DNA of 64,000 nt from Waddliaceae bacterium (lineage in GTDB: Bacteria > Chlamydiota > Chlamydiia > Chlamydiales > Waddliaceae). A program made the position numbers and the translations under genes. The DNA lies in NCBI GenBank assembly GCA_963724325.1, contig CAVRUH010000001.1:608001-672000 (forward strand), read 5' to 3'. This document shows, in pieces, positions 49,736-62,719 of the stretch. The notes under the pieces were generated by a model. It had not been told where the DNA came from. It ran no database searches and saw only the letters and a list, made by a program, of their open reading frames with translations. The first letter of the stretch is position 1. Every line of letters begins with the position of its first letter.

Positions 49736-50348
49736 AAATGGGAGCAATGCATTGTTGGATCCATTTTTGGCATAGATTTCCTTCAAATTCTGAGACTTGT
49801 TTAGCGTAAGAGAAGCCTGATGGAAGGTGATGGAGCCCCTCTATCATTTCATTGAGATGTTCTTTTTCTTCTAGAAGGATCGATTTGACCGTTACTCGTG
49901 AATGCACTTTCCGAAGGACCTCGTCATAGATAAGATATAATTCCTCGGCGCGAAGTTCAATGGCATAGGTAACAAGCAAATAGGCTGCAGGTTTAATTTG
50001 ATTGCAGGGAAGACCTGACTCCTTGAGAAGACGACAGGTTTTTAGATCCAACATATTTAAATAACGCATGGTGGAGGCACCACCCAAAATAAATTCAGGT
50101 AAATAAGTCTCCAGAGGTGTTTTGGAAACCTTTTCAATTTGACGCTTCAAATGATGGGCATGGCGAAACTCTTCAGCAGCATGCTTGAGCATCTCTTCTT
50201 TAACAAGCGTGGGATGCTCGCATGCGGCAATTTTTCTTGCCCCGCAGTTTTCTAGATATGAAAGTGTGTTTAACCATTTAGCATGTAATTCGTCTGAATT
50301 AACGATTCTGGTAAGTAGCTCTCTTGTGGAAGTTGAAAATGATATCAT
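49734..50348 (-). CDS. Ferritin-like diiron protein (BioE-like, putative pimelate-moiety supply)
   Basis: Two E...ExxH sets (LENCG/EEFRH; IELRA/EEKEH); last gene of bio operon, ATGA overlap with bioA. Confidence 0.75.
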   Translation of the reverse strand: MISFSTSTRELLTRIVNSDELHAKWLNTLSYLENCGARKIAACEHPTLVKEEMLKHAAEEFRHAHHLKRQIEKVSKTPLETYLPEFILGGASTMRYLNMLDLKTCRLLKESGLPCNQIKPAAYLLVTYAIELRAEELYLIYDEVLRKVHSRVTVKSILLEEKEHLNEMIEGLHHLPSGFSYAKQVSEFEGNLCQKWIQQCIAPI

Positions 50349-51613
50349 AATGTTTGGATAATTTGGTTATAGATTAATTGGAGTTCTTGTTTTTGGATGC
50401 AATATGGAGGCATTACATAAAAAACATTGCCGAGTGGACGGAGCAAGGTGCCTTTATCTAAAAAGAAATGATAAAGTTTATCTCGAATAGGTTGAAAATA
50501 AGAGGTATTTTCCACTTGATACTCTATTACAAGGATGGTCCCAAGGGATTCACACCTTTTGAGTTTGGGATGCTTCCTAAAATTTAAGCAAAATTCTTTA
50601 TGGCATTCGGCAATCATTTTTCTTTGAATAAAACAATTTTCATCAAGCAATAGGTCAAGGCTGGCAAGAGCGCTGGCACAAGCTAGCGGATTAGCCGTAT
50701 ATGAGTGCCCGTGCAGGAATGCTTGGTTAAGATGGTCTCCTAAAAATGCATTGAAAATACGCTCGGTGCATACTGTCGCACTTAAAGGGAGAAATCCCCC
50801 AGTTATCCCTTTTGAAAGACAAATGAGATCAGGCTGCTCTCTCAGTTGTTCGCAGGCAAATAAAGTTCCAGTTCTCCCGAATCCTGTCATTACTTCATCA
50901 GCGATGGTTAAAACATCATTTTGTTTGCAGGTCCTAATTAGATCATCGATTCCGTTTGCTGAGGTAATGATCATGCCGCCAGCGCCTAAAATAAGGGGTT
51001 CGAATATAAAGCAAGCGACATTTCCGGAATTTACAATTTCTTGTAACTGAGTTAATGATTGTTGTTCTTTTCCTTGAGTTGGTGGATCTATAGATTCTAC
51101 TTCAAAAAGATGGTTCCAAAATGGTCTGTTGAATTCATTTTTCCCTGCAACAGACATGGCTCCGAAGGTGTCACCGTGGTAGCCACCTTTAAAGCAGATG
51201 ACTTTTCGTTTTGTAATTTTTAGATTGTGCCAATACTGAATGGCTATTTTGATCGCCGCTTCGACAGCGGTTGAGCCATTGTCGGAATAAAATATTTTGC
51301 TCATATTGCCTGGAAGAAGGGGAATGAGGCGTGATGCAAGCTCAACCGCCGGGGCGTGGGTGAAATCGGCAAAAATGACATGCTCGAGCTGTTCTGCTTG
51401 TGACTTTATTTTTTCAATGATGTAGGGGTGTGAATGTCCGTGGAGATTGGTCCACCATGAGGATATACCATCCAAATACCGTTTCCCATCTTCAGCATAA
51501 AGGTAGATTCCTTCGCCTTTCACGATAGGTATTGGTGAACGGGCGGTTTTCATCTGCGTGAAGGGGTGCCAAATGTGGGCGCGATCTTTTTCGATTAAAT
51601 TTTGATTTTCCAT
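50345..51613 (-). CDS. bioA: Adenosylmethionine--8-amino-7-oxononanoate aminotransferase
   Basis: WHPFTQ, SSWW, YHGDT, DEVMTGFGRTG, SKGITGG, HGHSY. Confidence 0.96.
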   Translation of the reverse strand: MENQNLIEKDRAHIWHPFTQMKTARSPIPIVKGEGIYLYAEDGKRYLDGISSWWTNLHGHSHPYIIEKIKSQAEQLEHVIFADFTHAPAVELASRLIPLLPGNMSKIFYSDNGSTAVEAAIKIAIQYWHNLKITKRKVICFKGGYHGDTFGAMSVAGKNEFNRPFWNHLFEVESIDPPTQGKEQQSLTQLQEIVNSGNVACFIFEPLILGAGGMIITSANGIDDLIRTCKQNDVLTIADEVMTGFGRTGTLFACEQLREQPDLICLSKGITGGFLPLSATVCTERIFNAFLGDHLNQAFLHGHSYTANPLACASALASLDLLLDENCFIQRKMIAECHKEFCLNFRKHPKLKRCESLGTILVIEYQVENTSYFQPIRDKLYHFFLDKGTLLRPLGNVFYVMPPYCIQKQELQLIYNQIIQTL

Positions 51614-52197
51614 TGTTTTGCGTACCTTTGAATGGTTTTTGCGTTAATTTTTGGTTCGGGAAGCAATCTTCCTAATAGGGGAATGTTCGATAATTTAAGG
51701 ATGGCAGATTCGCTATCTGGATTCGGTTCCCCATTGAATATTATTCCAGCAATTTGGATGTTGTGCTGTTTTAGAGCATTAATGGTAAGTAACGTGTGAT
51801 TAATGCTTCCAAGATAGTGCTTGGAAACGATTATCCATGTGCATTTCCATTGTTTAAAAAGGTCGAATGTTGTTTTCTCCAAAGTCACGGGTACAAAAAT
51901 TCCTCCTGCTCCTTCAATAATCAGCGTTTTGTTTGTTTTGGGTGGAATGATTTGATCTATATTGATTGAGATATTGTCTAATCTTGCTGCATGGTGAGGA
52001 GACAAAGGCGCTTTTAAGGTATATGCAGAGGAATGAATTTTATTACTATCGAGCAGTGATTTCATTACATCTGAATCGGAAATTTCACCACATTGAATTG
52101 GTTTCCAATAATCAGCATTGAATAATGTAGCAAGGATGGCTGAAACCACTGTCTTACCAACATCTGTGCTGATTCCTGCTACAATGATTTTATGCAT
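51595..52197 (-). CDS. bioD: Dethiobiotin synthase
   Basis: TDVGKT, WKPIQ, SPH.AA, EGAGG, LGSINH. Confidence 0.96.
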   Translation of the reverse strand: MHKIIVAGISTDVGKTVVSAILATLFNADYWKPIQCGEISDSDVMKSLLDSNKIHSSAYTLKAPLSPHHAARLDNISINIDQIIPPKTNKTLIIEGAGGIFVPVTLEKTTFDLFKQWKCTWIIVSKHYLGSINHTLLTINALKQHNIQIAGIIFNGEPNPDSESAILKLSNIPLLGRLLPEPKINAKTIQRYAKQWKIKI

Positions 52198-53222
52198 TCT
52201 AAAAGCCCCCTTAATTGTGTTTCTGTATTAATTGAATGGAGGCAAATGCGCATGACTTCATGACCTCGTTGAACTGTGGGACTTTTCAATGGCCTTACAT
52301 CATATCCGAAACTTGCCAATCTTTCCGTCTCATTTCCTTTGATGGGGATTGAGTGAATATGGGTTTCTGAACCAAGAATGCTTATCAATTTTTGGATGTG
52401 TCTCCGTTCAGCATCAAGTTTTGGAAATAGATCATAGCTTGATTCTATTGAAGCCAGCGTGTGAAATGGAAGTGCTGTAGAATAGATATAGGGTGTTGCA
52501 AAATTAATAAGCCCATGCATGAGTATTTTACTTCCCAAAACAATGGCCCCATATGTTCCTAGAGCCTTTCCAAACGTGGTTATTTGAGCAAATACTTCAT
52601 CTATCAAATTGTATTCTGCGACAAGTCCTTGTCCTTTCGGACCATATACTCCTGTGGCGTGTGCTTCATCAACGATTAAATATGCTTTATATTTTTTTGC
52701 TAATTGACATATTTCGATTAAAGGTGCTTTTGAGCCATCTGTGGAATAGATGGACTCGATGCAAATAAAACGATTTTCTTCTACTGAACAACTTTTGAGT
52801 CTTTTTTCTAAGTGGTCCAGATCATTATGTTTAAATGGAAAAGCTTTTGATCGGCTCAACCTCAGTCCGTCATGTGTTGAAGCATGCACTTTTGTATCAT
52901 GAAAAAATACGCTTTTGGCACCTCCTAATGCAGATATCAATCCGATATTTGCCATATATCCGCAACCAAAAATAAGTCCCGCTTCGTATCCATGAAATTT
53001 TGCGATTTTTTTTTCAAGAGCTTCAACATATCTTGAATTCCCCGTGAGTAGTCTCGATCCTGTTGATCCAATTCTTTTGCATTCATGAATGAACTTTTGC
53101 GATTGGGCCAATCCAAGGTAGTCATTTGATGAAAAATCAATCAAATTATCAATCACTTTTAATGTCCGTAAATTACCTGTTTTTTCTCGCTTACGTAATT
53201 TGTTTTCAATTTCAGCAGTCAT
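52179..53222 (-). CDS. bioF: 8-amino-7-oxononanoate synthase
   Basis: [31 protein letters not shown]. Confidence 0.95.
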
Positions 53223-54195
53223 TTTTTGGCCTTCTTTTCAGTCCCAAGACTTGAAACATTTCATCGTCCTTGTCTACCGAGGTGTTTGCAACAGTTAATA
53301 GCTTTTCACCTGCGTGAATTGAATTTGCACCAGCAAGAAAACAGAGAGCCTGTTGTTCAAATGACATCTCTAGCCTTCCACTTGATAATCGTACCATCGC
53401 TTTGGGCAATACAATTCTGGCTATTGCAATGACTCGCAGCATTTCCCAAAATGAGATTTTCGGTTGATTTTCGAGGGGAGTTCCTGGGATCCGGCTTAAT
53501 CGATTAATGGGGACAGATTCTGGATGAGGATTCCGTTGACACAAAGTGTGGAGAAGCTCCAAACGGTCTGAATAGCTTTCTCCCATGCCAATAATGCCTC
53601 CACAGCATACGCTGATGCCTGTTTTATCAACTATATCCAATGTATTTAGTCTGTCTTGATATGTTCTGGTTGTAATGATGGTTTTGTAGAATGATTCTGA
53701 AGAATCGAGGTTATGACTATATGCATAAAGTCCTGCTTCTTTGAGTCTTTTTGCTTGGTGATCATTTAACATGCCCAATGTGCAGCAAACCTCTACGCCC
53801 AGGGCGGTTATTCCCTTTACGATGCGAAGAACATTATCGAATTGTTTATTATCTCGAACTTCTCTCCAAGCTGCCCCCAGGCAGATCCGGGTGGCCCCAC
53901 GTGCAATGGCTTTTTTAGCTTCGTTTAATACTGTTTCGTATTCCATCATGGGTTGGGCTGATACAGGAGTTTGGTACCGGGAAGATTGGGCGCAGTACTT
54001 GCAGTCTTCCGGGCATCCGCCGGTTTTTATAGAGATAAGGCTGCATATTTGAACTTCACCTGGATTGTGATGTTTTGTGTGGATGGATTGAGATTTTCCC
54101 ATCAATTCAAAAAGTGGTAATTGATAGAGGTCTTCAAGTTCCTCGATTGTCCAATCGTATCTGATTAATTTTTCCATATTTTTGCCATTTTTCAT
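53212..54195 (-). CDS. bioB: Biotin synthase
   Basis: CPEDCKYC radical SAM motif, YSHNLD, ESVPIN. Confidence 0.97.
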
Positions 54196-54264
54196 TAAAA
54201 AACAGTGATTCTATTGGTATTTTTTATGATTTTCAACATAAAATCGGGCTTCAAAATTTTGATT

Positions 54265-54281
54265 AAACTAGAAAGTAGTTT
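54265..54281. promoter_or_regulatory. Operator-like palindrome AAACTA-GAAAG-TAGTTT
   Basis: Perfect 6-bp arms; repeated 67 bp away. Confidence 0.7.
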
Positions 54282-54331
54282 TCATAAATTCGAATATGGG
54301 GTATAAGTATTTCGCAATCACTGAACCGATG

Positions 54332-54348
54332 AAACTAGAATATAGTTT
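54332..54348. promoter_or_regulatory. Operator-like palindrome AAACTA-GAATA-TAGTTT
   Basis: 15/17 identical to the 54265-54281 copy. Confidence 0.7.
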
Positions 54349-54378
54349 GGAAAACTCAAAATGAGGTTTGATTTTTTT

Positions 54379-55158
54379 ATGCTTGAAGTACTATGCGGCA
54401 ACAAAAACGTGCAACGAATCCTGATTTTTCTATTCGTCAACGGAAAATGCTATGGAACTCAGCTCCACCAGGCACTTAAAGCTCCTCTCACACCTATTCA
54501 AAAAGCTTTGAATCGACTTGAAAATGGAGGTCTGATCACAAGTCTTTACATTGGAAAAACGCGCGTGTATCAGTTTAATTCAGGATACCCGCTAATGACC
54601 GAACTCGAACAATTGCTTAAAAAAGCTTACACCCTTCTACCAGCAAACGAAAAGAAGAACTATTACATCATGAAAGAAACAGGTCATCAAGAAAACCAAA
54701 GTAAAGTTCTGCTGAATTTTTGGGAAAAGCTTTTGGCCGTGACTGAGCTATCATTTGAAGCAGCGACAAGATCTAATGAGCAAAGCGGCTGGAACGGCAA
54801 GGGAAAAGGAGAAGTTACTGTGATCCGGGAAGGGCACAATGTACTGATATTCAATGAAAAGGGACAGTGGAAGGGAACTCAAAGTGGAGAGGTCAATTTT
54901 AGTAATGTTTTTCGTTGGACACTGGATCGTTATGCTGGTGTTATTTCATTAGAGCATATGCGACGGGGTCCCGAGCACCCTGTTTTTTTATTTCATCTCG
55001 CACCATCGGGCAAACAATCTCTAGCCTCTGTCGATTCACATCTTTGTGGCGGTGATACTTACTTTGGACAAATACGATTTGACGCGCACGGCCTTAAGCT
55101 CAACTGGCGTGTCATAGGTCCCAAGAAAAATGAAGAGATAGATTACCATTATTATTAA
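54379..55158 (+). CDS. Winged-helix regulator fused to a DUF6314-like beta domain
   Basis: N-term PIQKALNRLENGGLITS..GKTRVYQFN wHTH; C-term GWNGKGKG, NVFRW, HLCGGDTY, WRVIGPKKNE. Confidence 0.8.
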   Translation: MLEVLCGNKNVQRILIFLFVNGKCYGTQLHQALKAPLTPIQKALNRLENGGLITSLYIGKTRVYQFNSGYPLMTELEQLLKKAYTLLPANEKKNYYIMKETGHQENQSKVLLNFWEKLLAVTELSFEAATRSNEQSGWNGKGKGEVTVIREGHNVLIFNEKGQWKGTQSGEVNFSNVFRWTLDRYAGVISLEHMRRGPEHPVFLFHLAPSGKQSLASVDSHLCGGDTYFGQIRFDAHGLKLNWRVIGPKKNEEIDYHYY

Positions 55159-55225: not shown

Positions 55226-55795
55226 ATGAACAAGTTATTGTGGATTGCTTTACTTTCTATGGCGCCTTTATTTGCGCATGCATCACAAACACATGAAAAG
55301 TGTCATTGCGATGCTGAATATGGGTATTTTTATAATGATGCGCTACAGCTTGTGTATTTTTTGGAGCCCATACTATGGGCTGGAGATAACTCTGTTCACT
55401 CTGAAGGAATCTACATACAAAATAGTGATAGATCTACGATCTTAATAGAGCAGCCAGGTGTATATGAAGTGATTTATTCAGTCAACGCTGTCGGTTTTTT
55501 ACAACCTGTTACCATGGCACTTTTTCTAAACGATGATTACTTTCCAATTGATGGAAGCGTATTCACAACTACTGCGTTAAGTGCTCTCAATGAGGGTTTA
55601 GAAATCGGGGATATATATATTGGCGGCCAAATATTTGGTCACGTACTTTTTAGGATTGCAGAACCCTCCTCAACAATTTCACTCGTAAATTTGTCATTGA
55701 ATGAAGAAAATGCCATCTTGTTGGACAATCAAACATTTCTTGATATTATTGACAGTGTGAGCGCTACGCTCTACATTCAAAAAGTTGGAAAATGA
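55226..55795 (+). CDS. Secreted protein with BclA-C/C1q-like beta-sandwich
   Basis: Signal peptide; YGYFY, PGVYEVIYSV, ALFLND, TISLVN. Confidence 0.65.
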   Translation: MNKLLWIALLSMAPLFAHASQTHEKCHCDAEYGYFYNDALQLVYFLEPILWAGDNSVHSEGIYIQNSDRSTILIEQPGVYEVIYSVNAVGFLQPVTMALFLNDDYFPIDGSVFTTTALSALNEGLEIGDIYIGGQIFGHVLFRIAEPSSTISLVNLSLNEENAILLDNQTFLDIIDSVSATLYIQKVGK

Positions 55796-56853
55796 ACTTT
55801 GCAATTGACTTCACGGCAATACTCCTCCTAGGGGTATTGTCCGTTATCGTATTTATCATTTGGAAATGGAGCCTCTCTTTTGAAGAGCCTCGTATCTCCC
55901 ATTCTTCATTAACTCATTTTACCTTCAGAGATCTCAGAGGAAAGTTATCTTTTCTTCCTAAATATTTGAGATGTGCAGCGCTGGTTCTATTTTCAATAGC
56001 TTTGATTGATCCACATTATTTTACTGAAAAAAAACCAAAGGGGCTTCCGATTGAAAAAAATATCCCTACTGAGGGGCTAGCAATCTATCTAGTTCTAGAT
56101 CAATCAGGCTCAATGGAAGAAGCTTCCGAACGAGGTGTGAGGAAAATTGATCTATTAAAACGAGTGACTAAAGACTTTATTAATGGCCGTCCCAATGACA
56201 TGATAGGGCTCGTTGCATTTGCTAGAAGTGCCCAGATTATGGCTCCTCTGACTTTGGATCACAATGATATCATCAAACAATTAAATGGTGTCAATGTAGT
56301 CAAAGATCCAGCGCAAGATGGTACTTCGATAGGCTACGCCATATATAAAACTGTCAATCTCATTGCAGAAACGCGAAAATACAATGAAGAATTATCAGGA
56401 CAAGGGAAGCCAGCCTATGAAATTAAAAATGCAGTGATTATCCTAGTTACGGACGGCTTTCAAGCTCCAAGCCCCTTGGACACAGGTAATCGGTTGCGTA
56501 ATTTAGACCTCAGCGAAGCGGGCGATTTTGCAAAAAAAAATCATGTTAGAGTCTATATTGTCAATGTGGAGCCTAGAATAGGTGAAAACAAGGAATTTGT
56601 TCCCCAGTTGCACCTTTTGGAACGAGTTGCAGATGAAACGGGTGGAAAATTTTATCTTGTGGCCGAATCAAAAAGCCTCGAAGATATCTATGGAGAAATT
56701 GACCACATTGAGAAAAGCGTTTTTACAGCAAATCAATATAATTCAATCCTTTATGAAAGAGTTTCTCTCTATCCAATTTTTGTCGCAGCAGGATTATTCT
56801 GCATGCTCCTTTCGGCGCTATTAGATACAACGGTGCTGAGGAGGATTCCATGA
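55792..56853 (+). CDS. BatA-like VWA membrane protein
   Basis: LDQSGSM MIDAS, APLTLD, GTSIG, VTDG, TGGKFY. Confidence 0.88.
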   Translation: MNFAIDFTAILLLGVLSVIVFIIWKWSLSFEEPRISHSSLTHFTFRDLRGKLSFLPKYLRCAALVLFSIALIDPHYFTEKKPKGLPIEKNIPTEGLAIYLVLDQSGSMEEASERGVRKIDLLKRVTKDFINGRPNDMIGLVAFARSAQIMAPLTLDHNDIIKQLNGVNVVKDPAQDGTSIGYAIYKTVNLIAETRKYNEELSGQGKPAYEIKNAVIILVTDGFQAPSPLDTGNRLRNLDLSEAGDFAKKNHVRVYIVNVEPRIGENKEFVPQLHLLERVADETGGKFYLVAESKSLEDIYGEIDHIEKSVFTANQYNSILYERVSLYPIFVAAGLFCMLLSALLDTTVLRRIP

Positions 56854-57908
56854 TTCCCGCTGATTTAATCTATGGCAATATTTCTGCAGTATACCTATTG
56901 ATTTTTGCATTAATTATTCCTTTGCTTGGATGGAACCTTTATGTCTATCGCAAGAAAAAATTAGGAAACTTTGCTTCAAGCGATATTTTAAATCAACTTT
57001 TAGTTCAAAGATCGCAATATAATTTCTGGGGAAAGGTCATTGCCTTAAGTTTGGCGGTCATTTTCGGGGTTATTTCCTTAATGGAACCCATAGGTAATGG
57101 ACACTATCCCACAGGAGCAAAGGTAAAGCTTCCAACTGAAGAAATCAATACACGGCGCCGGGTGAATGATGTTATTTTTGTTGTTGATTCATCAGCTTCA
57201 ATGGGTGCCACGGATACTCGGACCGGTGTAAGCCGTCTTGACAGTGCAAAAGAGATTGTGGATGAGATCATTAGTAGATTGCATGGAGAAAGCATTTCTT
57301 TATGGGCTTTTGCAGGAGAACCTGCAAAGCTGTCCCCATTAACAATGGACTACTTTTTTGTTCGGATGATGCTTAAACAAATGGACTATAATGAAGGAGA
57401 TGTGCCCGGAACCAACATAGAAAATGTACTTTCAGTCATACGCAAAGAATATTATTCCACAATTTCGACAAAACATCGAACTATAGTATTGCTTTCAGAC
57501 GGGGGAGAAGACGAACCATTAACGATTGCGAATACCGTAGATCAGGCGGACATTCTCAATTTACGAGTTTATACAGTTGGCATGGGATCGAAGGAGGGAA
57601 AGATAATTCCTGGAATAAAGCCCGATGTAATTTCAAAGCTAGAACCATCACTCCTACAGCAACTTGCAGAAAAAGGCAGAGGAAAATATTATATCGCTAA
57701 TGATTATACAGCAATACAGCTTGCTGAAGATGTTGCGACAAGAATAAATAATGAAAGTAAGTTTGAAGAATTTAAAGAAAAACTACCAGCGATATCCTCA
57801 GAAGAAATAATATATGATCTCTACTTCCAATTTCCCCTGGCTCTTGCATTAGTCTTATTGCTCTTCGTGACAATATTTCCCGACACCACAAAAAAGAGGC
57901 AAATATGA
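56850..57908 (+). CDS. BatB-like VWA membrane protein
   Basis: VDSSASM, SRL..AK, SPLTMD, LSDG. Confidence 0.88.
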   Translation: MIPADLIYGNISAVYLLIFALIIPLLGWNLYVYRKKKLGNFASSDILNQLLVQRSQYNFWGKVIALSLAVIFGVISLMEPIGNGHYPTGAKVKLPTEEINTRRRVNDVIFVVDSSASMGATDTRTGVSRLDSAKEIVDEIISRLHGESISLWAFAGEPAKLSPLTMDYFFVRMMLKQMDYNEGDVPGTNIENVLSVIRKEYYSTISTKHRTIVLLSDGGEDEPLTIANTVDQADILNLRVYTVGMGSKEGKIIPGIKPDVISKLEPSLLQQLAEKGRGKYYIANDYTAIQLAEDVATRINNESKFEEFKEKLPAISSEEIIYDLYFQFPLALALVLLLFVTIFPDTTKKRQI

Positions 57909-58915
57909 GTATCGTGCCCCGTGCGATCATGCATATCCTCCTTTATACAAGGGATAACAGGATTTGGATGATCGCATACATGATTTATTTATTTTCGTGT
58001 TGGTCATACAGTTTACCAGCCTTATCACTGTCGCAGGAGGGGGCAGCCTATTTTGAAGCAAAAGAATACGAAAAGGCCATAGAACTCTATGAAAAAGTGG
58101 CAAAAAGCGATATAAGTTCGTGGCAACAGGCAGCAGTACAATATAATATTGGTACATGTTACATGGCCGCAGGAGATGTAAAATCTGCTTTAAGAGTATT
58201 GAGAGGCATTCAAACAATATCGCCGCTTGTCTTGCGACAGATACATCAAAATCTAGCTCTCATATTGATGAAGGATGACAAAACACTTCAGGAAGCAAAG
58301 CTCGAAATTGACGCAGCCATTAGAGCCGACTGCATTCTACTAAAGGTTGAAGGATCTCAAGATTGTCATCCCTCACCGACACTCTATGAAATTCGCGATT
58401 TTATTGAGAAAAAATTGTCTGCTATTCCTTCACAACCCTTTCAAAATATTGTTGAAAGCAATGATCCTCAGTCTATACTAGATGCCTCAATTAAGGAACA
58501 AGAGCATGCGCTACTCATTAATCGACTTTATCAAGAATCTAACGTGCAATCAGTGGAAACCCGTCAATTAGTGAATGAGGCACAAGCAAAGGTTTTAATG
58601 GTTGCAGAGCCATATTTGAAGCATGTTTTGGAGTACGAAAAACAAAATTATCCAAAGCAATGCCAATGTACTCCGTGGGACAATATCATTCCAAACTTTG
58701 AAAAAGGTTATCAGCTTGCAAAATGGAAGCTTGCTTACATACCTATCCAAGAAGAGATTTTGAGATTATGGAGAGATGCAAAAGAACCCCCGAAAAAGCC
58801 CCCTGAAAAGCCAAGCAATGAAGTGCTTCGAGAATTGCAGAAAATGGAGCAGGAAGACAACTTACCGCAGGTACCCAAACCTTTGAATACAAAGGGGATT
58901 AAAAAACCATGGTAA
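57905..58915 (+). CDS. BatC-like TPR protein
   Basis: YEKAIELY, YNIGTCY TPRs; terminal KPW. Confidence 0.75.
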   Translation: MSIVPRAIMHILLYTRDNRIWMIAYMIYLFSCWSYSLPALSLSQEGAAYFEAKEYEKAIELYEKVAKSDISSWQQAAVQYNIGTCYMAAGDVKSALRVLRGIQTISPLVLRQIHQNLALILMKDDKTLQEAKLEIDAAIRADCILLKVEGSQDCHPSPTLYEIRDFIEKKLSAIPSQPFQNIVESNDPQSILDASIKEQEHALLINRLYQESNVQSVETRQLVNEAQAKVLMVAEPYLKHVLEYEKQNYPKQCQCTPWDNIIPNFEKGYQLAKWKLAYIPIQEEILRLWRDAKEPPKKPPEKPSNEVLRELQKMEQEDNLPQVPKPLNTKGIKKPW

Positions 58916-60486
58916 GAATGCTTCTCTTCCTTTTAATAGTCCCTCTAATGCTCTTTTCAGAAGAAGATCAAGTGATCTTTCGTCTAGAAACATTTGTCGA
59001 CGCCAATCCAACCATATATCCCAGTGAAACTATTAGAATTGGATATCGCTACATTTTCAACAGAAATTTCAGCTTAACAAAAGAAGAAATTCCCCTCCTT
59101 GAAGCAAATGGATTTCACAAAATCGGAGAAAAAGTCTTTCAAGATAGTGTGACTGGAACAATAACAACAGTTGAAATTTCACAAGTTGCCGAAACTGTTG
59201 CCCCAGGAACTTATACATTTGGTCCTTCAGAAATTTCAGGAAAATCCTATACCGAAAATGCTGTTGGCACACGCGAATATTCGAAAGAAGAATATTCGGC
59301 AAAAGCTTCAGGCGTCACTATAGTGGTTCATCCATTTCCCGAGAAAAATAAACCAGCTTCTTTCAACGGCGCAGTCGGTCAATTCACCATGGATGTTGTT
59401 TTGTTGACTCCTGCAGAAATGGCAGTAGGAGATAAAATTCTTTTACAAATAAAAATTGTTGGGCCCGGTGAAATTAACTATATTCCTTTTCCAGAAATAT
59501 GCTGTCAGCCTGGCTTTAGCGGATTTTTTAAAATGAGCGATCTTCCTCCCACTGAAAAAATCGGAGACAAATCAAAGGTTTTTGTTCTAGAAATGCGCCC
59601 TCAATCGGAATCTATCAATGAAATTCCACCTATCGAATTTTCTTTCTTCAATCCCATTAATGAAACCTATGTCACTATTACTAGTGATCCTATTCCCGTC
59701 AAAGTACATCCTTTGAATAACGAGCCTCCGGTTGTTCCAACAAAACCCTCAGGACCACCTGATCAAGCTAAGACGACCGAAATTGAAATTCAAAGCGTAT
59801 ATCCATTGTCATCATTTTGGTATTCAAATATTGTAAATGAAAAGCTTAAATTTGCATCTAGTAGTTATGTAGAGGCAGAAAAAACAAATATTGTTGCAAC
59901 ACGCGCGGTTGGATTCAACCTTGCTTTAGAAATTTATACCTCACTTGAAAAGAAATTATCATCAGCCAAATTGTATTACAACATTGCAAATTGCTATTTT
60001 CAGGTTGCACAGTATTCTCTAGCTATTTTTTACTATAACAAAGCCCTCAAGCTAGCGCCCCGCGAACCTAGAATCCTCCAAAATCTGGAGGTTGCGCAAG
60101 CAAAGCAAGGGCTTTCACAAAATAGTTCTGTGAATTATTTTTCCATGTCTGAGAGGCTGCGGGTATTTTATATTGTTTTGGGCGCTGCAATAGTTTTTTT
60201 CTTTATCAATACTTTCTTGTTTCGTATATTTTCCGCGATCACACTCATTTGTATATTGAGCTTTATGTATACAATCTATTTTGTGAAGGCTGAAGGTGTC
60301 ATCATCACTTCCTCGGTCATCTATCAAGATGCCGGAACTCAATACGCCAAAGTTTCAGAAAAGCCCATTTTAGCTGGTTTTCGCGTTGCTGTTCTCGATG
60401 AAGCCCAAAAGGGAACATGGCTAAAAATTCAGGCACAAGACGGCACTATTGGCTATGTCCCATCTAACAACATTAGGCTTTTTTAA
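58909..60486 (+). CDS. BatD/BatE-like fusion (Ig-like, TPR, TM, SH3)
   Basis: FNGAVGQF, FSFFNP...Y, YYNIANCYF, WLKIQ..DG.IGYVP. Confidence 0.8.
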   Translation: MVRMLLFLLIVPLMLFSEEDQVIFRLETFVDANPTIYPSETIRIGYRYIFNRNFSLTKEEIPLLEANGFHKIGEKVFQDSVTGTITTVEISQVAETVAPGTYTFGPSEISGKSYTENAVGTREYSKEEYSAKASGVTIVVHPFPEKNKPASFNGAVGQFTMDVVLLTPAEMAVGDKILLQIKIVGPGEINYIPFPEICCQPGFSGFFKMSDLPPTEKIGDKSKVFVLEMRPQSESINEIPPIEFSFFNPINETYVTITSDPIPVKVHPLNNEPPVVPTKPSGPPDQAKTTEIEIQSVYPLSSFWYSNIVNEKLKFASSSYVEAEKTNIVATRAVGFNLALEIYTSLEKKLSSAKLYYNIANCYFQVAQYSLAIFYYNKALKLAPREPRILQNLEVAQAKQGLSQNSSVNYFSMSERLRVFYIVLGAAIVFFFINTFLFRIFSAITLICILSFMYTIYFVKAEGVIITSSVIYQDAGTQYAKVSEKPILAGFRVAVLDEAQKGTWLKIQAQDGTIGYVPSNNIRLF

Positions 60487-61931: not shown

Positions 61932-62249
61932 ATGGGAAAGATAGTCCCTTTTGAATCGCAAGAACCGCCATTTACATTGGATGAAGCAGTAAAGAAAATA
62001 CATGAATTAGCGAAGAAATCTACAAATGTATTTATTATCAGCAATCATGCAGAAAAAAGAGCAGAAACTAGAAATGCGACACTCAGACAAATATCTGATG
62101 TGCTGAAACACGGAAAAGGTGTGGATGGACCAACACAAGATGAACATGGTAATTGGAGAGTAAAAATAAAACATTATACTTGTGGAAGAACAGTACAAGT
62201 TGTGGTGGCTTTTAAAGGAGACCGCTTAATTATTGTAACAGTAATATAA
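61932..62249 (+). CDS. DUF4258-family putative toxin
   Basis: SNHAEKRAETR...VLKHG...WRV...IIVTVI. Confidence 0.82.
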   Translation: MGKIVPFESQEPPFTLDEAVKKIHELAKKSTNVFIISNHAEKRAETRNATLRQISDVLKHGKGVDGPTQDEHGNWRVKIKHYTCGRTVQVVVAFKGDRLIIVTVI

Positions 62250-62263
62250 ATTTTGAGTTTTTT

Positions 62264-62719
62264 ATGAAGAAAAAATTATATCATTATACAGATTGTGGTC
62301 TAAATAACGTTTATTTGGTAAATGGTTTTAACACTATTGAAACTGAATATGGCGTTGCTGTTTCTATAAACAATATGGATGGTTTGCATAAATCTATAGG
62401 TTTGTTTTTGATCTCATCAATCAGAGATTTACCCGGAGATGAAATTAGATTTTTAAGGCATGAAATGCTTATGTCTCAGAGAACTCTTTCTTCCTTATTA
62501 GGAGTAAGTGAACAAGAAATTCGACGATGGGAAAATGGAAAAATAAAAATTCCTAAACCATCAGAATCTCTTCTACGCTTGCTTTATAGAGAGCATGCAA
62601 TTGATAAAAGTGGAAAAATTGCGAGCATTCTAAAAAAGATTTCACACTTAGAAGAAAAAATAAATGAAATGCAATTCATATTTAAAATTTCAAAAAATGA
62701 ATGGCAAGCTGCTGCTTAA
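62264..62719 (+). CDS. Xre-HTH antitoxin (MqsA-like)
   Basis: YHYTDCGLNNVYLVNGF; EIRFLR...SQ..L..LLGV....IRRWENG. Confidence 0.85.
   Translation: MKKKLYHYTDCGLNNVYLVNGFNTIETEYGVAVSINNMDGLHKSIGLFLISSIRDLPGDEIRFLRHEMLMSQRTLSSLLGVSEQEIRRWENGKIKIPKPSESLLRLLYREHAIDKSGKIASILKKISHLEEKINEMQFIFKISKNEWQAAA

Follow-up and report, generated by a model that had tools for sequence, protein, structure and literature searches.

Gene content of the locus

The window analysed here, i.e., the whole stretch of 64,000 nucleotides from a Waddliaceae bacterium, contains a biotin synthesis operon and, facing it, the gene of a candidate regulator (Table 1). As the first-pass annotation had stated, the regulator gene is divergent from bioB. 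The genes bioB, bioF, bioD, bioA and a bioE-type gene all lie on the opposite strand. The regulator frame is open from 54361 (265 residues); its homologues begin at MLEVL (54379), which gives a protein of 259 residues. The bioE-type gene has no sequence match in Pfam, NCBIfam or PDB. BioE carries six iron ligands in the pattern E..E-x-x-H..E..E-x-x-H, and E33/E60/H63/E131/E161/H164 in the window gene have the spacing of E26/E53/H56/E125/E155/H158 in EmBioE (PMC12915131), a comparison by ligand spacing without direct alignment. The biotin ligase of the same genome has 204 residues and no HTH.

On the other side of the regulator gene, two vWA-domain genes (Pfam) followed by TPR-like and long BatD-like open reading frames occupy 55792-60486, an arrangement that we take to resemble a Bat-type operon. 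A DUF4258 gene paired with an HTH_3/MqsA-like gene at 61932-62719 is a probable type II toxin-antitoxin module (Pfam). The genes downstream of the regulator are not conserved across homologous loci.

Table 1. Features of the regulator-bio locus, in window coordinates
Feature	Position	Strand	Basis or remark
bioE-type diiron oxygenase (pimeloyl precursor), 204 aa	49734..50348	-	Iron-ligand spacing; bio operon
bioA, DAPA aminotransferase	50345..51613	-	TIGR00508 above cut-off
bioD, dethiobiotin synthase	51595..52197	-	TIGR00347 above cut-off
bioF-type 8-amino-7-oxononanoate synthase	52179..53222	-	TIGR00858 best match (300 bits, cut-off 426); operon context
bioB, biotin synthase	53212..54195	-	TIGR00433 above cut-off
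Predicted sigma66/70-type bio-operon promoter, TTGAAA-17-TAGAAT (10/12)	54208..54236	-	Conserved over homologous loci
Operator A (predicted), AAACTAGAAAGTAGTTT	54265..54281	.	PWM 21.9; 28 bp upstream of the -35 box, centre at about -72 from the predicted bioB start
Partner A' (predicted), degenerate	54286..54302	.	PWM 0.1; 21 bp from A; family mean PWM -0.1 vs -33.8 at control offsets
Operator B (predicted), AAACTAGAATATAGTTT	54332..54348	.	PWM 22.0; 47 bp upstream of the regulator start
Partner B' (predicted), weak	54352..54368	.	PWM 13.8; covers the regulator leader and likely ribosome-binding region
Candidate regulator, 259 aa: winged helix (aa 1-96) and DUF6314 10-stranded beta-barrel (aa 104-259)	54379..55158	+	Homologue alignment, domain search, model

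Domain architecture and predicted fold

The protein had been described as a winged helix joined to an all-beta, 'DUF6314-like' domain. Pfam, an AlphaFold2 model and fold matches all bear out this junction, and the second domain is a full member of DUF6314 (PF19834; E = 1.5e-10, 42.1 bits against a gathering cut-off of 23.1, residues 142-264 of the 265-residue frame). In the full-length model (pLDDT 85.8, pTM 0.62) the winged helix is followed by a flexible linker (98-102), one helix and the beta-barrel. The fold of the N-domain is of the HlyU/BigR/SmtB type (ArsR/SmtB; Z 10.2-10.8 over 82-84 residues), with HlyU as the best match (Z 10.8, rmsd 2.4, 82 residues aligned) and MarR entries within 1 Z. 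At the sequence level it scores 15.1 bits with the ArsR family NF033788, under the curated cut-off of 55, Pfam winged-helix matches are weak, and a PDB search with the family profile returned weak wHTH matches alone (best E = 0.0044).

Modelled alone, the C-domain (pLDDT 93.2) is a 156-residue all-beta barrel of about 10 strands. Among 48,161 chains compared it matches a designed 10-stranded barrel (Z 13.8), the CpeS phycobiliprotein lyase (Z 11.3), OlmO (11.0), Rv2717c (10.8) and the THAP4 nitrobindin (10.7). The C-domain is thus predicted to be a 10-stranded barrel of the nitrobindin/phycobilin-lyase type. Nitrobindin, CpeS and OlmO resemble it in predicted fold (Z 10.3-11.3, rmsd 3.4-3.9, 136-142 residues aligned) but differ in sequence (5-12% identity); no ligand can be transferred from them, and the matched entries are not fused to a wHTH. 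The earlier suggestion of a calycin/streptavidin-like barrel is supported in its first part, in the broad sense that the lyase, OlmO and nitrobindin match at Z 10-11. Its second part found no support among the matches listed: no avidin is in the top 50 of the structure comparison, and in a Foldseek search rhizavidin appears only at rank 49 with an rmsd of 10.

Homologues and their gene neighbourhoods

A protein search found 929 relatives among 1227 candidates, those listed being 68-77% identical to the query. Among the best 150 matches of a profile search, some 30 are full-length representatives, and stand-alone barrels are numerous. Criblamydia sequanensis has a homologue, WP_154017687.1. The relatives are labelled almost entirely as Chlamydiota MAGs, with a few Verrucomicrobia, Bacteroidetes or unclassified entries. 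A match of any kind occurs in 179 of 301 genomes of the phylum and in none of the 30 genomes of family f4; the full-length regulator was found, among the listed matches, at 111 places in 108 genomes.

Among the best 80 of 103 GTDB loci, a biotin gene is the divergent neighbour of the regulator in 71. It is bioB in 42 (with two fragments), bioY in 23, BPL_N in 5 (all stand-alone genes) and bioD in 1. The other nine, among them a locus at a contig edge and a match truncated at its N-terminus, have no bio neighbour. In remoter homologues (39-47% identity), the gene opposite is a Pfam-confirmed bioY in four cases and a tblastn-level bioY match in a fifth. On a quick, poorly resolved tree, in which 7 of 75 branches are starred, bioB and bioY loci interleave (e.g., L008, L010 and L067 lie inside a bioB clade, and L077 next to L078). 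We also assembled a held-out set from 80 metagenome loci, from which 26 loci at least 90% identical to the training set and one duplicate were removed. Of the resulting 53 loci, 35 face bioB, 3 bioY and 4 other genes; in the remaining 11 the flank is too short. The regulator is divergent from a biotin gene in 38 of the 42 with enough flank.

The bioY loci are without BioE and the synthesis enzymes, and most bioY cassettes are accompanied by BPL_N. Stand-alone BPL_N (PF09825) genes stand behind bioY or directly under the operator at L024, L030, L043, L046, L062, L064, L075, L179 and others, which ties this domain without known function to a putative role in biotin uptake or salvage. A BPL_N search of the window's own genome gave no match; the control likewise matched nowhere.

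Partial or decaying bio operons (bioB-bioE only, bioD only or bioB fragments) lie beside the regulator or operator at L009, L014, L029, L051, L057 and L176, suggesting frequent loss and a switch to uptake. In five genomes (G001, G064, G101, G167 and G256) bioB lies in open frames of 704-719 residues, probably fused to another bio gene; the full-length regulator was not found in these five.

A conserved operator

The twin palindromes noticed in the first-pass annotation are exact: AAACTAGAAnnTAGTTT occurs at both A and B, 67 bp apart. At up to two mismatches it has three matches in the window, the third being the second site read on the opposite strand, against a chance mean of 0.32, and none of 100 shuffles reaches three. 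Across loci, conservation covers AAACTA-N5-TAGTTT and does not extend to the central GAA, and a weaker partner lies 20-21 bp downstream of each strong site. Among 79 upstream regions the motif is exact in 27, within one mismatch in 58 and within two in 69 (shuffles: 0, 0.27 and 4.2, respectively). Because the PWM was trained on the GTDB loci, the held-out set is the fair test, and there 41 of 45 loci carry the operator (0.15 in shuffles). Together with the neighbourhoods described above (71/80 GTDB loci and 38/42 held-out loci), this is the co-occurrence of fusion and palindrome with bio genes that had been proposed as a check. From the palindromic form of the site we infer that the regulator acts as a dimer.

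The operator also marks bioB where the regulator lies elsewhere. Among 78 genomes with bioB outside family f4, the regulator is adjoining or divergent in 51, elsewhere in the genome in 6, and none was found in 21. Of the six with the regulator elsewhere, four (G037, G215, G231 and G096) still carry the operator upstream of bioB, and two (G133 and G068) have no site there; in G215 the regulator gene itself lacks a site (best score 2.0). These trans sites could be relics of recent rearrangement, since G215 keeps the old spacing and the bioB of G096 matches over residues 9-193 only. A site at bioB was found in one of the 21 genomes in which no full-length regulator was found (G200, weak and at a contig edge), and in none of 15 family f4 genomes examined (of 22 with bioB).

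Housekeeping bioY genes not adjacent to the regulator have no site in 29 of 29 loci (1.5 kb of flank examined), 18 of them from regulator-bearing genomes, nor was a site found at the bioY of the window's own genome; these results argue against a whole-genome biotin regulon. Eight of nine non-bio loci still carry a site, so autoregulation accounts for part of the motif, and operator B is likely to be autoregulatory.

A scan of the window's own genome gave four sites scoring at least 20 (0.17 expected), two of which are A and B. The other two were rejected as regulon targets: C5:163623 is inside a coding region, and C10:15899 forms the centre of a longer inverted repeat that separates a heavy-metal ATPase-like gene from a nucleotidyltransferase-like gene pair. 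This perfect operator match within the longer repeat (G000:C10:15885-15920) could be a terminator or another operator.

Position of the operator relative to the bio promoter

A promoter scan of the single locus does no better than chance (1 found, 2.0 expected), and the promoter in Table 1 is called because it is conserved across loci, not for its score at one locus. With the pattern TTG...-16/18-TA...T, sought on the bio strand up to 60 nt downstream from the bio-proximal site, a promoter is found in 50 of 61 loci, mostly as TTGAAA and TAAAAT and often matching the consensus at 10 of 12 positions; none was found in the remaining 11. The gap between the end of the site and the -35 box is 17-20 in 18 loci, 28-30 in 31 and 47 in one, and never 21-27, so that 49 of 50 loci fall into two classes. 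In shuffles the promoter occurs in 4.8 loci, and a gap within these ranges in a mean of 0.55 (maximum 3). The held-out gaps are 18 (7 loci), 19 (4), 27, 28, 29 (7) and 50, i.e., 19 of 21 in the same two classes. With these gaps, the centre of the site falls near -62 or -73 from the predicted start, one helical turn apart; the gap of 28 in the window belongs to the longer class. The first-pass annotation had not remarked on this phasing. On the quick tree the two classes change 11 times (14.2 when shuffled), and the starred branches force only 2 changes; switching between classes looks repeated on this weak tree. None of the aligned loci has an operator over the bio promoter or downstream of it. 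By eye, no consistent -35/-10 pair of the regulator's own promoter was seen at site B.

A steric repressor needs neither avoidance of the promoter nor phase, and the arrangement therefore points to contact with RNA polymerase, most simply activation. CRP-like class I activators have a similar preference, with optima at -61.5 and -71.5 and intermediate positions avoided (PMC4132738); in our case the start is predicted from the -35/-10 boxes. They differ in that no relation to the regulator was seen in sequence or fold, and activation is here read from the geometry alone. Provided that the bio genes are regulated by this protein, the helically phased upstream operator is reasonably probable to be an activator geometry. 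The near-consensus promoter, however, would be unusual for strong dependence on an activator.

Origin of the winged helix

Fourteen matches to the N-domain only (L237-L250, in 14 chlamydial genomes) are wHTH genes of 111 residues (one shorter), 37-53% identical. Most are followed by a gene of about 180 residues, with weak matches to DUF2204/DUF6036 nucleotidyltransferases in seven of eight scanned; the stand-alone wHTH ends in a basic RxRPRRxGKPL-type tail, and the gene pair has a weak PADLOC match to PDC-M05A. The pair is widespread and looks like an uncharacterised type IV toxin-antitoxin-like operon. Within 110 bp upstream of the stand-alone wHTH, AACCTA-N5-TAGGTT is found at up to one mismatch in 11 of 14 loci, and the regulator consensus in none of the 14. 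These palindromes are twin, 21 bp apart, and cover a TTGACA/TATAAT promoter; in many cases TTGACA stands immediately upstream. Since the stand-alone relatives carry a near-identical palindrome, the wHTH domain is tied to this kind of site independently of any bio context.

The two systems thus share a related wHTH and twin palindromes 21 bp apart that differ by one bp per half-site (AACCTA vs AAACTA), whereas the pairs have a basic tail in place of the barrel, a nucleotidyltransferase-like gene behind it, and sites that overlap their own promoter. This comparison suggests that the regulator probably arose by fusing the autoregulatory wHTH of such a pair with a free DUF6314 barrel.

Role of the regulator and alternative explanations

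It is very likely that the wHTH-DUF6314 protein regulates bio genes in environmental chlamydiae. The role proposed in the first-pass annotation is well supported by comparative genomics: the gene faces both synthesis and uptake cassettes, the operator recurs in the held-out set, and in trans it is still present at bioB. In the mechanism that we propose, the regulator would bind AAACTA-N5-TAGTTT as dimers at tandem sites 21 bp apart and would switch on the divergent bio promoter from upstream of its -35 box, at a distance of one or two helical turns, through a class I-like contact with RNA polymerase at the C-terminal domain of its alpha subunit. Its own gene would be repressed from the site over the leader, autorepression being expected because site B and its partner cover the regulator leader. 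The input would come through the beta-barrel, most likely as biotin or a pathway intermediate, and ligand binding would stop activation when supply is adequate. Of the modes considered, activation from the phased upstream operator is overall the likeliest, with slightly better than even prospects.

The same regulator and operator could also serve repression at a distance, with tetramers at A and B looping the DNA or with RNA polymerase trapped through its alpha C-terminal domain at a strong promoter, biotin or a precursor being the co-repressor. GalR and phi29 p4 are models for such repression. The near-consensus -35 and -10 boxes would suit it, as would the spacings from A to B, which are 66-70, 77-80 or 88-92 bp, i.e., in steps of about 11 bp, in 44 of 46 loci; moreover, the sites of the wHTH relatives on their own -10 box have a repressor geometry, and the described biotin regulators repress (PMC5640590, PMC12704756). 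However, it speaks against repression that the aligned loci have no operator on the bio promoter or downstream of it, the spacings in the held-out set are less regular (84 and 86 do not fit the phase), and both sites are present in only 46 of 61 loci, many having a bio-proximal site and no detectable B. We consider repression at a distance unlikely, but the main rival to activation. Far less probable is an explanation in which the palindrome is an autoregulatory operator only, inherited from a toxin-antitoxin-type wHTH ancestor, and the gene travels with bio cassettes on other grounds, e.g., with the barrel as an accessory enzyme or carrier of biotin metabolism. The sites kept at non-bio loci and the near-identical, apparently autoregulatory palindrome of the wHTH relatives could be accommodated in this way, and the H-x-C-x-x-D-x-Y motif of the stand-alone barrels looks enzymatic; but sites remain at bioB after the gene has moved (4/6), the site is phased to the bio -35 box in two independent locus sets, and the H/C/D motif is relaxed in the fusions.

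As for the ligand, E160, N176, H193, R195, Y228, K250 and Y258 are conserved in 32 fused and 91 stand-alone representatives of the barrel. H221, C223 and D226 are at 93-100% in the stand-alone barrels and 62-81% in the fusions, and the whole H-x-C-x-x-D-x-Y motif is at 93-100% in the 91 free barrels and 62-91% in the regulator fusions. Stand-alone DUF6314 genes were rejected as biotin genes, since none of 22 stretches (20 chlamydial and 2 proteobacterial) has a bio gene nearby. Because the conserved barrel residues are common to these non-bio proteins, the case for biotin sensing is drawn from regulon content alone, and we give an even chance to a barrel that senses biotin or a precursor. It is possible, though less probable, that the bio genes are regulated and the signal is neither: a fatty acyl chain, redox state or a metal via H221/C223/D226, or a partner protein of the kind proposed for BioQ/BioR, e.g., BPL_N or the biotin ligase. 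Such a signal fits either sign of control and overlaps the explanations above. The closest folds bind haem, bilins or polyketides, the pocket residues are those of non-bio DUF6314 proteins, BPL_N accompanies most bioY cassettes, and DNA binding by BioR is independent of biotin (PMC5640590), all in keeping with another signal; on the other side, biotin itself is the sole common denominator of the bioB and bioY cassettes.

The fullest form of our proposal can be put forward only tentatively: a fifth family of biotin regulators, and the first activator of biotin genes, in which the wHTH of a toxin-antitoxin-like operon is joined to a DUF6314 barrel as a new fold for binding biotin or a precursor, and in which RNA polymerase would be recruited from -62/-73 when the host cell is short of the vitamin.

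Implications for chlamydial biotin supply

Fisher et al. (2012; PMC3459881) described Chlamydia as having no known biotin regulators, its biotin genes being either unregulated or under a novel mechanism, and the 2025 papers on BioE call the absence of BioL from Chlamydia a paradox (PMC12915131, PMC12704756). The terms 'biotin' and 'bioB' do not occur in the main texts of Domman and Horn (2015; PMC4652624) and de Barsy (2016; PMC4989314), nor in four supplements of the former. A literature search returned nothing on 'DUF6314' and no description of a wHTH-DUF6314 protein; subscription journals and RegPrecise-type databases were outside its scope. The gene family is very probably an undescribed, conserved regulator family for biotin supply in environmental chlamydiae.

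By naming a candidate regulator, an operator and a promoter geometry for the environmental lineages, these results make the question of chlamydial biotin regulation directly testable, and they agree with the regulator having been lost in family f4 (0/30 genomes), whose genomes are small and which is, from that size, taken to be the Chlamydiaceae. DUF6314 would gain its first functional handle. If activation is true, the sign of control would be opposite to that of the described biotin regulators, and the protein would be a compact biotin-responsive switch. The shift of one bp in the operator from that of the wHTH relatives would make this a clear example of a mobile gene pair giving rise to a metabolic regulator.

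Comparison with known biotin regulators

The architecture is unlike that of the described biotin regulators, as had been claimed at the outset: the defining domain tests of BirA, BioR, BioQ and BioL all failed. Class II BirA also has an N-terminal winged helix and acts on genes for synthesis and transport, in many cases through a divergent promoter region; membership was rejected since the C-terminal biotin-protein ligase domain (PF03099) is absent, the barrel fills the C-domain, and the genome's own ligase is without HTH. BioR (GntR) and BioQ (TetR) are, as predicted for the present protein, dedicated regulators that accompany a class I ligase; they were found by co-localisation and motif conservation, are autoregulated, and have targets that include bioB and bioY (PMC5640590). 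They belong to other protein families, and each is described as a repressor for which no ligand is known (PMC5640590). No GntR or FCD match was obtained at E = 0.05, and the C-domain is DUF6314 above cut-off, which sets the protein apart from BioR; no TetR match was obtained either, and a winged helix with a beta-barrel, rather than an all-helical C-domain, sets it apart from BioQ.

The closest parallel in setting is BioL, the MocR/GntR-type repressor of the BioE pathway in Elizabethkingia (PMC12704756, PMC12915131), which is likewise a one-component regulator of an HTH and a ligand domain encoded beside a bioE-type pathway, with palindromic operators. The present protein is not a BioL/MocR member, having no aminotransferase match and a C-domain that is a 156-residue all-beta barrel. 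BioL is a repressor of about 56 kDa that carries a PLP-aminotransferase-like domain and uses 46-bp palindromes, whereas the chlamydial candidate is a protein of 259 residues with a DUF6314 barrel and a 17-bp palindrome placed upstream of the -35 box.
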